Shown one piece after another: positions 21,265 to 26,534 of a DNA stretch of 64,000 nucleotides (its first letter is position 1; the number at the start of each line of letters is the position of its first letter). The notes beneath the pieces were generated by a model that saw only the letters and a program-made list of their open reading frames with translations, did not search any database and was not told where the DNA came from. A program made the translations under genes and the position numbers. Source of the DNA: an uncultured Verrucomicrobiae bacterium (lineage in GTDB: Bacteria > Verrucomicrobiota > Verrucomicrobiia > Chthoniobacterales > JAATET01); assembly GCA_963719495.1 (NCBI GenBank), contig CAVRCI010000004.1:288001-352000 (forward strand), given 5' to 3'.

Positions 21265-21597
21265 AGATCCTCTTCGATCAATCATAATCTCAGCCACCGC
21301 CTCATCCAACGACTGGGCGACATCTTCCCGGATTCCACTCACGTCCGACAGATCGGCATGGAGAGCGAAGATGATCTCACGATCTGGGAATACGCGCGCG
21401 AACATGGCTACATCATCGCTACGCAGGACTCAGATTTCGCAGACTTTAACCGCTTACGGGGCGCACCACCAAAGATTCTTTGGCTTCGCTGTGGCAACCA
21501 GACGGTGACGGAAATCGAACGCCGAATCCGCACCTACTTTCCCCGAATCCAATTTCTGGAAACCGACCCGAAGATCGATGTCGTTGAAGTCTGGTAG
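21261..21597 (+). pseudogene. DUF5615 PIN-like toxin, frameshifted by a 4-bp duplication
   Basis: TTG start KILFD; ATCA duplicated at 21277-21284; removal gives DHNLSHRL...IWEYA...IATQDSDF...PPKILWLRCGN. Confidence 0.85.
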
Positions 21598-21736
21598 ATC
21601 CCCCACCTGCCTCCTCAGCCGATGCCTGTTAATCGGAACTTCACTGGAGTAAAAAGGCAGGGAAGCGCATGAATAGTAGGTTTGCAGCGATTTTTGGCTT
21701 CCAGCTACTGGCTACAGCGTGAATGGGGTCAGTCGA

Positions 21737-22001
21737 GAATGGCATTGTTTTAAGCGGAACGTCGGCAGGGCTGTAGCGGCGGTCTGTGACCGCCGGTGCC
21801 GTCAGACTCGGGTGCGCAAACCCAGCGAGATGGTTGGCGGCGGTCACAGACGCGCCGCCACAACTTCGCGCTCACCCCACCAACACCGCCAGCGTTGATC
21901 GAAAAGACCCCGGTTGCCAATGATCTCGCGCGGAACGGCCTCCAAGCCGTCCTCACCTCCTTGCGCTCTTCGCCGAAATTCCGCTTAAAACAGTGCCATT
22001 C
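21737..22001. mobile_element. MITE copy 2 (265 bp)
   Basis: Closely similar to 15395-15661; 23-bp TIR with one mismatch; left TSD GGGTCAGTCGA, right TSD interrupted by IS110. Confidence 0.9.
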
Positions 22002-22092
22002 GGGTCAGGCGGCATGAAAGGCTGATGAATAGAGCTTTGCTGGGAAGTGGGGCCCGGAGAGCCTGATAAAATGGATGGTGTAAGTTGGGGTG

Positions 22093-23301
22093 ATGAAAAC
22101 CCAACGAAAAAGCCTACCGACGGAATCGAGCTTCATTGGCATCGATTATCACAAGAGATACAGCGTCTATTGCGTGGTCGATAGCCACGGCGAGGTGCTC
22201 GGCCAAGGGCGCATCGAGCACGCGATCAGCGGAGATTTTGGGCGGCTCGTCGAGCGGTGGCCGGGCTGCCGGATCGTCTTCGAAGCGAGCATGAACTGGC
22301 ACTGGCTCTACGAGATTCTCGAGCAGGTGATGCCCGCCGAGAACATCGTGTTGGCCAACCCGTTCAAGACGCGGATCATCGCCGAGGCTCAAATCAAGAC
22401 CGATAAGATCGACGCCCGAGCGTTGGCCAATCTGTTGCGGGCCAATTTGATTTCGAGCGTCCACATCCCCAGTCGCGAGACCCGCGACATCAAGAACGTG
22501 CTGCGCCAGCGTTGTTTCTTCGTGCGCCAACGCACGATGCTGCGCAACCGCATCCACCGCTTACTTGGTGGGCAGCACGAACTCAAACTTCCTGTCTGCA
22601 GCGATCTCTTCGGCAAGAAGGGGCTGAGTTTTCTGGAAAATCTCGAACTCCCGGAACCAGCCGGAATGCTGCTCACCCAGCAACTCGCCCTCCACAACGA
22701 GTTGGCCGCTCGCATCCGCCAAGACGAGGCAGCGCTCAAAGATCTCATGAGCCAAAGCCCCGAGCTCACCCACGTCTGCAGTCTCCCCGGGATGGGACCC
22801 ATCCTCGCAGCGGTTGTCGTCGCCGAGATCGACGACATCTCGCGCTTTGCCCCCGCGCAGAAGCTCTGCGGCTACGCGGGACTCTGCCCGGCGACGAGCA
22901 GCAGCGGCGGTAAGACCTACCACGGACGCCTGCTGCCCCAGTGCAACAAATGGCTGCGTTGGGCCTTCGTCGAGGCTGCCTGGGTAGCCGTTGGCTGCTC
23001 GCCCTACTTCGGCGACTACTACAAAAACAAACGCGCTCACGGCAAGAAAGCCAACACCGCCATTCTGGCCACCGCCCGCCGGATGGCCCGCATCACCTGG
23101 AGCCTCTTGACCCAGGGGCGTTCCTACACGAACTTTCCTGAATCCCAAAAGCTCCGAAGCCAGCGCCGTGACGCGGACGGGCAAACGCCTTCCCGATCCG
23201 GCCTGGCCAAGGAAAAAATTGAAGACATGAAAACCCCGAAAACACGCCAGGGACGCAAACGTCGATCTTCTCGAAAACAATTTCCCCAGCCGCTCCAATG
23301 A
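22093..23301 (+). CDS. IS110-family DEDD recombinase/transposase
   Basis: IGIDYHK, VFEAS, KTDKIDA, LPGMG, YAGLCP..SSSGGK. Confidence 0.96.
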   Translation: MKTQRKSLPTESSFIGIDYHKRYSVYCVVDSHGEVLGQGRIEHAISGDFGRLVERWPGCRIVFEASMNWHWLYEILEQVMPAENIVLANPFKTRIIAEAQIKTDKIDARALANLLRANLISSVHIPSRETRDIKNVLRQRCFFVRQRTMLRNRIHRLLGGQHELKLPVCSDLFGKKGLSFLENLELPEPAGMLLTQQLALHNELAARIRQDEAALKDLMSQSPELTHVCSLPGMGPILAAVVVAEIDDISRFAPAQKLCGYAGLCPATSSSGGKTYHGRLLPQCNKWLRWAFVEAAWVAVGCSPYFGDYYKNKRAHGKKANTAILATARRMARITWSLLTQGRSYTNFPESQKLRSQRRDADGQTPSRSGLAKEKIEDMKTPKTRQGRKRRSSRKQFPQPLQ

Positions 23302-23594
23302 ACGACTGGTTGGTCGCTAAGTCTTAGCACTTAGTCGGCGCACCTTGGGTCAGGATGGAGGGCTGGGGATCTGATCGCCACAATGGATGGGGGCCAGAAG
23401 TGCCCGCCCCGCAGAGAAGTGTGATTCCAGCATCGCTATCGTCCCAAGTTTACAGGCTCCTTCCCTCGATGTAAGAGCCCGCGCTTTTCCCTGCCCTGAT
23501 GGTCACCCATTGGGCGCTTTCTTCTGCGTTCCCCGCCCCACTCGGGCCAAGAACCCTCTAAATTAGACCGTTGACAGCCCTTCGACCCTTTTTT
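23302..23594 (+). ncRNA. Candidate bridge/seek RNA in the IS110 right non-coding end (boundaries unknown)
   Basis: About 290 bp non-coding; contains GGGTCAGG (= left target), TGATCG (reverse complement of core plus right target) and CAGAGAAGT (= element right terminus). Confidence 0.65.
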
Positions 23595-23953
23595 CAGAGA
23601 AGTCGATCATTCGTGACCAGTTTGCGAACAGGGTTGCTCCTTCATGGTGAGGCTTCGCCAGGACGGGGTCGCTCTTTTTGCAATAGCACAGCATTGGCCG
23701 GACAAATCCGCGGAATGACCAAGCGATCCCACCCCCTGACCTCCCAATCCTTCGCGATAACCAGGCGAATCCTCGTGCAGAACTCAGGAATCCACGCTCA
23801 GTGATCTAAGGTGACCGACCCCCGTCACCGGAATCGGAGCGGACTTGTCGAAATCGATCGACTTCCTCCCTTATGCTCGGAGTAAACCAAACGCTCTCTG
23901 CGATTCAAACCGGAAAGAGGTCGGGGTGCGCGCGAGACGACCAGGTTCTCCGT

Positions 23954-26293
23954 TTAGCGACGAATGATGCGGAGTCTGAGGGTCTTGGAGCGGTTGCCTG
24001 ACGGGTCGAAGGCGCGGACTTTGATGAGGTTTTTTCGTTTGTTCTTCCTGGGGCGAACGATGGCTTTCCAGCGGTCGGTTCCGCGGGTTTTCTTGAATCC
24101 GCGTTTGCCGGGCACTTTGAATTCGACCCGCGTGATGCCCGATGCGTCGGTGGCGGTGCCGCGGAACACAATGCGGCGTCGGGTCGACTCGACGCGGCGG
24201 CGACCTTTTACGCGAACAATCGGGCGGGTGACGTCGGGGGTGGGTGCGATGATGGCGGTGGGCGGGAGGACGAAGACGTAGGCGGCTCCGGAGTCGGTCG
24301 CGGTGTTGTCATTGATGGCGAGGGGATTGTTGACGCCGATGGCGTTGCTGTCCTCTTCGGCGGCGCCGACGATGGCGGTCGTGCCCGAGATGGCGACGGC
24401 TCCCCCGAAGCGGTCGTCGGGGTCGGTGTTGGCGGATTTGAGATAAGTTTGTTGGGACCAGGTCGAGCCGGAGCGCACGAAGAGGTAGGCGGCACCGGAC
24501 TCGGGGTCGGTGTTGTCGAGTTGATTCCCGTCGATGCCGACGGCATTGCTGTCCTCGAAGATGCTGCCGACTATGAGATTCCCGCCCGAGAGTGCGAGGG
24601 AGCGGGCGAATTGGTCGCCATCCCCGGCGTTCGACGCTTTGAGATAAGCCTCGGGGAACCAGGTCGGGCCACTTCGGACGAACGTGTAGGCCGCGCCGGC
24701 GGCTTCGGCGCTGTTGTCGGTCTGGTTGCCGTTGATGGCGGTCGCGGTGCTGTCCTCGAAGGGAGCCCCGACGACGAGAAGATTGCCCGAGATGGAGAGC
24801 GAGGTGCCGAACTGATCACCCTGGCCGGAATTGGAGGCTTTGGCGTAGGCTTGCTGGACCCAGTTGGTGCCGTTGCGGGTGAAAATGTAGACTGCTCCGG
24901 CTCCGGGAGCGGTGTTGTCGGTCTGGTCACCGCCGATTCCGGTGGCTCCGCTGTCTTCGAGGGGGGCGGCGACGGCGAGGATGTCGCCGGAGATTGCGAC
25001 CGTGCTGCCGAAGCGGTCGTTGGCGGCGGGATTCGACGCTTTGAGGTAGGCTTGCTGACTCCAGGCGGCGCCATTGCGAACGAAAACGTAGGCCGCTCCG
25101 CTGCTGGCGGCGGAATTGTCGTTCGGGTTGCCGTTGACATCGGTTGCGTTGCTGGCCTCGAAGCGCGCGCCGACGACGATGGTGTCGCCGGAGATGGCGA
25201 CGGATTGACCGAATTCGTCGCCGCCGTCGGAATTAGACGCTTTGAGGTAGGCCTGTTGGGACCAGGCGGCTCCGTCGCGAACGAAGACGTAGGCGGCTCC
25301 GGCGGCGGACGCGCCACTGTTGTTTTGATTGCCGTCGATGATGTCCGCGTCGCTGTCTTCGAGATTTGCTCCGACGACGGAGGTGTTGCCGGAGATGGCC
25401 ACCGAAGCGCCGAATAGATCGGTGTCGTCGGTGTTCGAGGCCTTGAGGTAGGCCTGCTGGGTCCAGGTCGTGCCGTTTCGGACGAAAACGTAGACCGCAC
25501 CGGCAGAATTCAGACCGTTGTCGGTCTGGTCGCCACCGATCCCTTCGGCGTTACTTTCCTCGCCGACGGCAGCGACGATGGCGGTGTTGCCCGAGATTGC
25601 GACGGAACCGCCGAAAAGGTCGCCTGAGTCGGGGTTGGAGGCTTTGAAGAGGGCCTGCTGAGCGACGGGGTCGATGGTGATGGGGTAGCGGGCGGAGCGG
25701 TCGTCGACTTCGATGGCGAAGCCGGCGGGGTGGGCGATGAATCGGGTCGGCAGCGTCCGGCCTTCGGCGTCCCAGGCGAGGAGGCCGGAGTAACTGAGGA
25801 CGGGGGCCCCGGAGTCGTTGGTGAATTGGACCGAGTCGGTGGCGACGAGCGGCGTGAGGTTGCCGCGGGTGGAGAGGGCAAGGATGAGCGGGCGACCGGT
25901 GGCGTCGTCGTCGGTGCGCTCGGTGAGGGTCCAGCCTTGCTGCAGGCCGTGGGGGTGGTTGACGAACCACTCGGCGAGGGTGTCGGAGTGGCGGCGGGCC
26001 AGTCGATTTTCGTCGGCGGCGGCGGCGGGTTCGGGTTGTGAGCCGACGAGTGCGAGGCCCCAGGTCCAGTCACCCCGGTCGGGCTTCGCGAGGAAGCCGT
26101 GTTCGTCAAAGGTGAGGGTCCAGCCTTGAGCGGGATTGCGAGCCGCGTGAGAGCCGTCGGATTCGGAGGTCATGCGGTGCCGCCAGAGGTCGTGGGCGGA
26201 GCGGAGGCCCGACAAGTCGGTGGGGGTGACGTGGGTGGCTGCGAAAGCCGCCGGGAGGCAGGCCAACATAATGAGCGGGAAGATTATCTGCAT
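23954..26293 (-). CDS. FG-GAP/integrin-repeat surface protein with basic C-terminal domain
   Basis: Signal peptide, YPITIDP, seven QQAYLKASN..D.FG.SVAISG repeats; ends LRIIRR; alternative start at 26308. Confidence 0.9.
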   Translation of the reverse strand: MQIIFPLIMLACLPAAFAATHVTPTDLSGLRSAHDLWRHRMTSESDGSHAARNPAQGWTLTFDEHGFLAKPDRGDWTWGLALVGSQPEPAAAADENRLARRHSDTLAEWFVNHPHGLQQGWTLTERTDDDATGRPLILALSTRGNLTPLVATDSVQFTNDSGAPVLSYSGLLAWDAEGRTLPTRFIAHPAGFAIEVDDRSARYPITIDPVAQQALFKASNPDSGDLFGGSVAISGNTAIVAAVGEESNAEGIGGDQTDNGLNSAGAVYVFVRNGTTWTQQAYLKASNTDDTDLFGASVAISGNTSVVGANLEDSDADIIDGNQNNSGASAAGAAYVFVRDGAAWSQQAYLKASNSDGGDEFGQSVAISGDTIVVGARFEASNATDVNGNPNDNSAASSGAAYVFVRNGAAWSQQAYLKASNPAANDRFGSTVAISGDILAVAAPLEDSGATGIGGDQTDNTAPGAGAVYIFTRNGTNWVQQAYAKASNSGQGDQFGTSLSISGNLLVVGAPFEDSTATAINGNQTDNSAEAAGAAYTFVRSGPTWFPEAYLKASNAGDGDQFARSLALSGGNLIVGSIFEDSNAVGIDGNQLDNTDPESGAAYLFVRSGSTWSQQTYLKSANTDPDDRFGGAVAISGTTAIVGAAEEDSNAIGVNNPLAINDNTATDSGAAYVFVLPPTAIIAPTPDVTRPIVRVKGRRRVESTRRRIVFRGTATDASGITRVEFKVPGKRGFKKTRGTDRWKAIVRPRKNKRKNLIKVRAFDPSGNRSKTLRLRIIRR

Positions 26294-26534
26294 GGCGGGG
26301 AGGGGCATGGCGGGGAGGGTGCCGGAAACGTCGGGCCAGAAGCGGGAAGACGTGCTCTCACGAATTTTCAGTGTTCACGGTGTCGGCGGAAGGGTTGGAC
26401 TTCAGGTGATAGTTGGTCGATTGCCAGTGTCGATTGCCAGTTGCAAAACAATTGCTTGGGTCGCAAGAATGGTCCCGGTCGTGGGAGCGGGGGATGGATT
26501 CGAGAAAAATTGACCCTGACCGCTTGCTGGCTTG

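Follow-up and report, generated by a model that had tools for sequence, protein, structure and literature searches.

An IS110-family insertion sequence of an uncultured Verrucomicrobiae bacterium with a predicted four-guide RNA in its right end

Does an insertion sequence (IS) of an uncultured Verrucomicrobiae bacterium carry the RNA that would guide its own recombination, and which bases of the DNA would that RNA read? The question is raised by a 64,000-nt stretch of DNA (GenBank assembly GCA_963719495.1, contig CAVRCI010000004.1, positions 288,001 to 352,000, forward strand), here called the window. An initial annotation, made from the letters alone, had proposed for it an IS110-family element with bridge/seek-RNA guides in the non-coding region of the right end, a proposal borne out by the protein domains, the fold and the guide matches described below. 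We consider it very likely that positions 22009-23600 are an intact IS110-family IS that encodes its own four-guide RNA of ~145 nt and that uses AG as its core dinucleotide. What is observed directly is presented first: where the element ends, which core it has, a conserved fold, and guides that match DNA or covary with it. The window lies on contig C4 of a host genome of 4.54 Mb in 16 contigs; coordinates given without a contig are those of the window.

Ends, core and recombinase of the element

A BLAST search of the region against the genome identifies five full copies of the IS: the one in the window, two on contig C14 and one each on C9 and C2. The body (22009-23600) is 95-98% identical among the five copies, and the alignment runs from 22002 to ~23604, with divergent flanks beyond. 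The transposase open reading frame (ORF) is unbroken in 5/5 copies, which differ by 5 to 23 residues. The parts of the window copy that define the element are the following.

22009..23600, plus strand: insertion sequence body, 1,592 bp (1,594 bp counting one core copy)
22002..22006, plus strand: left target flank (LT) GGGTC, the same five bases before all five genome copies
22007..22008, plus strand: core AG, left copy
22009..22013, plus strand: right donor (RD) GCGGC, the first five bases of the left end
22009-22089: left non-coding region, 81 bp
22090..23301, plus strand: IS110-family DEDD transposase/recombinase gene, 403 aa
23302-23600: right non-coding region, 299 bp
23595..23600, plus strand: left donor (LD) CAGAGA, the last six bases of the right end
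23601..23602, plus strand: core AG, right copy
23603..23610, plus strand: right target flank (RT) TCGATCAT, complementary together with the core to the right-target guide (RTG), with one mismatch

This layout, with a short left end, the recombinase gene and a long right end, is IS1111-type. The left junction reads GGGTC-AG-GCGGCATG in all five copies, and the four copies outside the window carry GGGTCAGGCGGCATG there. The right junctions vary: CAGAGA-AG-TCGATCAT in the window copy, CAGAGA-GG-TCATTCAT (CAGAGAGG-TCATTCAT) in three copies and CAGAGA-AG-TCCGTTCAT (CAGAGAAG-TCCGTTCAT) in one. Both junctions share the crossover dinucleotide AG (RG).

For a wider comparison, 100 related loci were gathered, 37 from genomes and 63 from metagenomes. 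In relatives with other left flanks, homology to the window starts precisely at AG. Junctions were used if they differed from the end motif at no more than three (left) or two (right) positions. AG is present in all 59 left junctions that were located, and the 65 right junctions located comprise 59 with AG and 6 with GG; both junctions carry AG in 46 loci, and AG on the left is combined with GG on the right in 6. The left junction is still AG in every one of these latter loci (C14a, C14b, C9, L001, L067 and L087; 6/6, not all independent). The first core base is therefore of donor type at the left junction and of target type at the right one. Crossover may in effect take place 5' of this base, or the information of one strand may be retained.

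The site of insertion provides its own test of the ends. Immediately to the left lies a miniature inverted-repeat transposable element (MITE; 21737-22001, 265 bp), whose terminal inverted repeats are GAATGGCA…TGCCATTC. Its other copies are flanked by target duplications of 11 bp; here the left duplication is GGGTCAGTCGA at 21726-21736, and removal of 22009-23602 rebuilds GGGTCAGTCGA on the right side of the MITE, with an 11/11 match. The element is inserted site-specifically, without a target duplication and with the core dinucleotide at both junctions, as expected of IS110. About nine full-length and two partial copies of the MITE are present in the genome, and many of them sit in GGGTCAGTCCG-like repeats, the repeats that the IS also uses.

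The protein is assigned to the IS110 family by two Pfam matches, DEDD_Tnp_IS110 (RuvC-like, E = 2.9e-16) and Transposase_20 (E = 9.2e-24), and by the NCBIfam profile NF033542, 'IS110 family RNA-guided transposase', with 235.7 bits at a cut-off of 140. This profile spans residues 15-344; the remainder is a basic tail of ~55 aa. Residues D19, E65, D105, D108 and S272 are all found, D19 and E65 being assigned from the local motif only, as is the motif GL-P----SG. The best plasmid tblastn matches are Rhizobium and Ensifer IS110-family genes at ~40% identity, and the labels among the plasmid matches offer no family name beyond the generic 'IS110 family transposase'. Identity by tblastn to ORFs annotated as IS4321/IS5075-family transposases, which we take to be IS1111-type, is ~22%, a value that weighs against simple IS1111 membership. 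Nearly all relatives of the element come from Verrucomicrobia metagenome-assembled genomes. With phmmer, the C-terminal domain can be aligned to the solved transposases of IS621 (E = 8e-11) and ISCro4 (E = 1.6e-10), and it is the sole domain alignable to the IS621 protein; the IS621 alignment pairs KTDKID (D105, D108) with KTDTVD and SSSGG (S272) with YESGS. By our own residue count, D105, D108 and S272 would be the counterparts of the IS621 catalytic residues named in PMC11208158.

Two further observations concern the copies themselves. The two full copies on C14 (C14:87221-90816) have the same orientation, lie 378 bp apart and have near-identical right flanks; they probably arose by local duplication or by two separate insertions into a repeat array. 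On C7 (83312-83441), a lone 130-bp fragment of the right end terminates in CAGAGA-GG-TCATTCAT within a TCATTCAT repeat array.

The predicted RNA and its four guides

The right end begins with a conserved segment. Over ~135 nt after the stop codon, identity among relatives is 77-91% where the proteins are 51-75% identical, and the rest of the right end is unconserved except for its last ~45 nt. From its conservation and fold, the plus strand from ~23284 to ~23430 is predicted to encode a bridge RNA (seekRNA) of ~145 nt, composed of four helices (P0 to P3), the RTG, the left-target guide (LTG), the right-donor guide (RDG) and the left-donor guide (LDG). In 5' to 3' order, these are:

23284..23296, plus strand: P0 5' strand CCCCAGCCGCTCC, in the last gene codons; closes the target-binding loop (model pairs 23285-96)
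23298..23307, plus strand: RTG ATGAACGACT, overlapping the stop codon TGA (23299-23301)
23308..23344, plus strand: P1, hairpin between the two target guides, 12 pairs
23347..23353, plus strand: LTG GGGTCAG, same sense as LT plus core
23357..23368, plus strand: P0 3' strand GGAGGGCTGGGG, pairs with the P0 5' strand (model pairs 23357-67)
23368..23371, plus strand: P2 5' strand GATC, closes the donor-binding loop; pairs with 23423-23426
23377..23381, plus strand: RDG GCCAC, reverse complement of RD +1 to +5
23384..23411, plus strand: P3, hairpin within the donor loop, 7 pairs
23412..23419, plus strand: LDG CAGAGAAG, same sense as the right-end terminus plus core, 8/8
23423..23426, plus strand: P2 3' strand GATT

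A covariance model built from 16 sequences returned 68 RNA matches in 100 sources (67 in 99 related loci, and the one in the window; L037, a weak 40-residue match, was left out of the RNA search). The RNAalifold structure has compensatory changes in 17/33 pairs. The four-helix model was scored on a fresh alignment (A3) of 54 distinct sequences, from which L017 (donor-guide deletion) and L045 (truncated by a contig end) were left out. In this alignment 97.4% of cells are paired and 19/34 pairs show changes on both sides, a score reached by 0/500 shuffles; slid controls gave 6-11 pairs. U-G is present at two pairs in 27 and 46 of the 54 sequences, a frequency compatible with the plus strand alone.

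Each helix can be judged separately. P0, examined in the upstream extension of the alignment (58 distinct rows), has 99.4% of cells paired and compensatory changes in 5/12 pairs; the corresponding values in the four-helix alignment are 99.5% and 5/11, and the helix appears in both the lowest-energy and the centroid folds of the window RNA. P1 shows compensatory changes in 9/12 pairs with 96.0% of cells paired, and this stem-loop is the stem between the target guides that the initial annotation had been unable to find. A U-A pair of P2 is replaced by C-G in 14/54 sequences, and four of the seven pairs of P3 have compensatory changes. Two stem-loops make up the predicted fold, a target domain of ~85 nt and a donor domain (P2 plus P3) of ~60 nt. 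Each has an internal loop, and all four guides lie in the unpaired strands of these loops.

RNAalifold also proposed a helix 23357-23365/23427-23436, which was set aside in favor of P0 and is retained as a possible alternative fold, and two pairs joining the donor guides, which were dropped as implausible. Two partners are available to the middle strand GGAGGGCTGGGG, the coding strand upstream (P0) and CCAGCATCGC downstream; in several sequences its change from CUG to CCG is matched by a change from CAG to CGG both upstream and downstream. The RNA may adopt two alternative folds.

The LTG agrees closely with the DNA to the left of the element. It matches flank plus core at 7/7 in 52 of 59 loci and at 6/7 in the other 7, and the flank plus core is GGGTCAG in 46 of the 49 loci that have a GGGTCAG guide. 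Four guide variants are known, each with its DNA counterpart: GGGTCAG with GGGTC-AG, TTAATAG with ATAAT-AG (6/7), TAATAAG with TAATA-AG and GGGACAG with GGGAC-AG. The TTAATAG and TAATAAG loci share one palindromic repeat, in which guide and insertion point are both shifted by one base.

The RTG was located by searching the right end for words of at least 6 nt complementary to the right flank; such words recur only at the RNA 5' end. It consists of the ten bases directly before P1, and its reverse complement is the core followed by the right flank. The window copy matches at 9/10, the three TCATTCAT copies at 8/10 plus a G-U at the core, and the TCCGTTCAT copy at 10/10 if one base is skipped. 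Other pairs of RTG and flank are ATTGCACACT/TGTGCAAT (10/10), AGCACGGACT/TCCGTGCA (9/10) and ATTATCGCCT/GCGATAAA (9/10). Across the family the mean match is 6.50/10, compared with 4.61 for shuffled labels, and with one skipped DNA base allowed the match is at least 8/10 in 38/63 loci.

In the donor loop, the RDG, which had been reported as not found, is present at 23377-23381. Its match to the left end is 5/5 in 22, 4/5 in 28 and 3/5 in 8 of 58 loci; RD positions +3 to +5 covary with it across the family, as in the pairs GTCGC/GCGAC, GCCGC/GCGGC, GTCAC/GTGAC and GTTAT/ATAAC (RDG/RD). The LDG matches at 8/8 in 40 and at 7/8 in 24 of 64 loci. The LDG and the terminus are near-invariant, and therefore no covariation can be tested there.

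Label-shuffling was done on non-redundant guide/DNA pairs. The covariation of guides and targets among homologues that the initial annotation had put forward as a check is found: the observed match is reached by 0/5000 shuffles for the right target and by 24/5000 for the left target. For the right donor the count is likewise 0/5000.

By analogy with IS621 and with ISEc11-type elements, this RNA would be made, bound by the protein and used to direct recombination. In the mechanism that we propose, the 403-aa DEDD/serine recombinase would bind the guide RNA; within the donor loop, GCCAC on the 5' side would pair with the first five left-end bases and, on the 3' side, CAGAGAAG with the last six right-end bases plus the core. 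The circularized element (…CAGAGA-AG-GCGGC…) would be brought to GGGTC-RG-TCGTTCAT sites, where strands would be exchanged at AG with no duplication made.

As read from their sequences, the guides are predicted to specify GGGTC-AG-TCGTTCAT, and not the target GGGTCAGGCGATCA that had been proposed. There are 2,867 GGGTCRG sites in the genome. Of these, 28 are GGGTCAG-TCCGTTCAT, a full RTG match with one base skipped, and one is GGGTCGG-TCGTTCAT; 69 sites are one mismatch from the specified right flank (27 GGGTCAG and 42 GGGTCGG), and the GGGTCGG one-mismatch sites shown are mostly TCATTCAT. The target sites belong to two abundant short dispersed repeats. Four of the five IS copies lie within these repeats, and the window copy occupies a MITE duplication similar to them.

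Several side observations bear on the RNA and its surroundings. An Rfam scan of 21500-24000, with E up to 10, gave as its sole match a chance lncRNA outside the element. In the soil metagenome run X6, contigs with a depth of up to 61 match only the guide-loop core 23338-23375, and relatives of this RNA seem abundant there. A TTGAC(A) hexamer (23571-23576) is found near the right end in all homologues; TTGAC starts 20-21 nt from the right end in 35/48 elements and 30 nt from it in 13/48. No -10 hexamer fitting it was found in the right end or across the circle junction, and in-silico circle junctions of 48 elements contain no convincing -35/-10 pair. Just past the IS, 23954-26308 (minus strand) encodes a 784-aa protein with many AYLKASN…GD.FG..VAISG…VGA repeats.

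Relation to known systems and competing readings

IS1111-type elements have a non-coding region downstream of the gene, and in their RNAs the top-strand match lies 5' of the bottom-strand match (Siddiquee et al. 2024, PMC11187229). The element shares with the seekRNA elements of that group (ISEc11, ISPa11, ISKpn4 and ISPst6) the long downstream non-coding region, the order RTG before LTG and RDG before LDG, the GL-P----SG motif and specific insertion into a short sequence without duplication (PMC11187229). Published seekRNAs are either short (82-96 nt) or long (148-172 nt), and the target domain of ~85 nt and the whole RNA of ~145 nt are near these lengths (PMC13604230). The predicted guide architecture is the IS1111-type order already published, and is not new. 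Against simple membership stand the length of the recombinase, 403 aa compared with 330-350 aa in IS1111, the excess being the basic tail, and the subterminal inverted repeat, read from the sequence, which is short and imperfect:

22015..22021, plus strand: left arm TGAAAGG
23587..23596, plus strand: right arm CCTTTTTTCA, partner of 22015-22021

This repeat amounts to about 5-7 bp with an indel, for an IS1111 criterion of 7-17 bp, and it is conserved in the family: CATGAAAG is kept in every left end found, and TTTTTCAGAGA at the right end in 18/18 homologues examined. A further difference from IS1111 is that the first RNA helix and the RTG overlap the coding end and the stop codon.

With IS621, the element shares a pair of internal loops that serve target and donor respectively (PMC11208160, PMC11208158), a 2-nt core, here in three of four guides, a DEDD plus serine recombinase, and genomic repeats as targets. 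In IS621 the RNA is located in the left end (Durrant et al. 2024, PMC11208160; Hiraizumi et al. 2024, PMC11208158), whereas here it occupies the right end, and both loops carry their guides in the opposite order, the right guide 5' and the left guide 3'; the initial annotation had rightly suspected an architecture unlike that of IS621. The core is AG here and CT in IS621; the LTG has 5+2 nt compared with 7+2, the RTG has 8+2 nt, and the RDG lacks core pairing. We found no counterpart of the IS621 handshake guides (PMC11208158); by eye, the base after the LTG (G at 23354) agrees with the first left-end base in many, not all, loci. ISPpu9 of Pseudomonas putida (PMC12288879), compared by description only, is likewise an IS110-family element that sits in repeats, in its case repetitive extragenic sequences, with a small RNA gene downstream of the transposase gene; its host phylum differs.

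A number of observations weigh against the reading of a four-guide RNA-directed element. No circle joint or empty site was found in the contigs of four DNA runs, which contain other insertions of the element and loose ends at 22002 and 23604, and a scan of 21950-23700 for sigma-70-type promoters found none. The alternative pairing 23357-23368/23427-23436 from RNAalifold also shows some covariation. Ungapped, the RTG matches at 6/10 or less in 25/63 loci, and in several loci the guide fits only when a base is skipped, a way of pairing that is not established for it. The RDG has just 5 nt and in the window copy matches GCGGC at 4/5. The core complement CU expected beside it is AA here and never CU in the family; in IS621 the core is paired in all four guides (PMC11208160, PMC11208158). 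The LDG is assigned its putative role by identity alone. Finally, guides and donor ends are shared by descent, and the shuffle counts therefore overstate independence. The flanks, however, lie outside the element, and their complementarity is not inherited.

The reading given by the initial annotation differed in where it set the ends. It placed a CG core between the junctions GGGTCAGG-CG-gcatg and cagagaagt-CG-ATCA, read the target as GGGTCAGG-CG-ATCA and took TGATCG (23372-23377) for the right-target guide. The motifs are located as it described (GGGTCAGG at 22002-22009 and 23347-23354, TGATCG, and CAGAGAAGT at 23412-23420 and 23595-23603), and CAGAGAAGT occurs three times in the 64-kb window for 0.28 expected (0/100 shuffles reach 3); GGGTCAGG, part of a genomic repeat, occurs seven times for 3.14 expected (2/100 shuffles reach 7). 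The window copy by itself agrees with the parse: each of its junctions contains CG, and CGATCA in its right flank has TGATCG as its reverse complement. The other copies argue otherwise. The right junction has no CG in three of the five, and TGATCG is unchanged in all of them despite their differing right flanks, which identifies it as a chance 6-mer match; it is the 5' part of a donor-loop strand (23372..23377, plus strand), and its variation within the family shows no relation to the right flank. Homology in the family begins at AG, and both same-sense guides terminate in AG: of the left-target guide proposed as GGGTCAGG, GGGTCAG (23347-53) stands and the last base (23354) lies outside the guide, and of the left-donor guide proposed as CAGAGAAGT, CAGAGAAG (23412-19) stands and the last base (23420) falls outside. 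The MITE duplication had been cited in support of these ends; excision does improve it, to 10/11 with CG and to 11/11 with AG. We give the CG parse almost no credence.

It is improbable, too, that the site is chosen by the left-target guide alone, assisted by protein contacts or by the hairpin shape of the repeats, with a weak and dispensable complementarity on the right. Such a choice would accommodate the different right flanks of copies that have one guide, the 25 loci with poor ungapped RTG matches and the palindromic targets (CAATAAT..ATTATTG) of one subgroup. It does not agree with an RTG-flank match well above that of shuffled labels (0/5000), with distinct RTGs that pair with distinct flanks at 9-10/10, or with the core complement CT in which the RTG ends in nearly all sequences. 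Even less probable is that the 3' region is a structured cis-element, either a DNA site of the recombinase or an element of mRNA stability or translation, with the flank matches as by-products. The position of the P0 5' strand within coding sequence and the empty promoter scan would suit this explanation, whereas the compensatory changes and U-G pairs favor a plus-strand RNA fold, the guides in unpaired loops change with DNA outside the element, unlike a cis-element, and the family is RNA-guided by experiment (PMC11208160, PMC11187229). The locus is a genuine IS of a known kind, probably active and RNA-guided, whose predicted guide map is now corrected and complete.

A more tentative proposal, which we hold to be unlikely, is that guide RNA and recombinase message are coupled, with one transcript switching between translated and guide forms. 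The P0 5' strand comprises the last four codons and the stop codon lies inside the RTG, and therefore a terminating ribosome would unfold the target-binding loop; the GGAGGGCTGGGG strand has a covarying downstream pairing (~23427-23436), by which one transcript could switch forms. If the coupling is true, retargeting of the right flank would necessarily change the C-terminus of the protein. On this proposal, too, the unpaired AA at the donor-guide core could bias strand exchange.

Meaning for the family

The mechanism of such elements is established and thousands of them exist; existing knowledge of how the family works is unchanged by this locus. A caution for annotation emerges: the conserved target of a site-specific element can be mistaken for sequence of the element, and the core must be set from several copies rather than from one. 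For an uncharacterized Verrucomicrobia recombinase, the locus supplies a fully parsed and naturally validated guide set that covers 15 bp of target (5+2+8) and 13 bp of donor (6+2+5), in a family with 403-aa proteins and a predicted RNA of ~145 nt. Its relatives display natural retargeting, as in the one-base guide shift that accompanies a one-base insertion shift, and evidence of this type serves to pick orthologues for programmable recombination.

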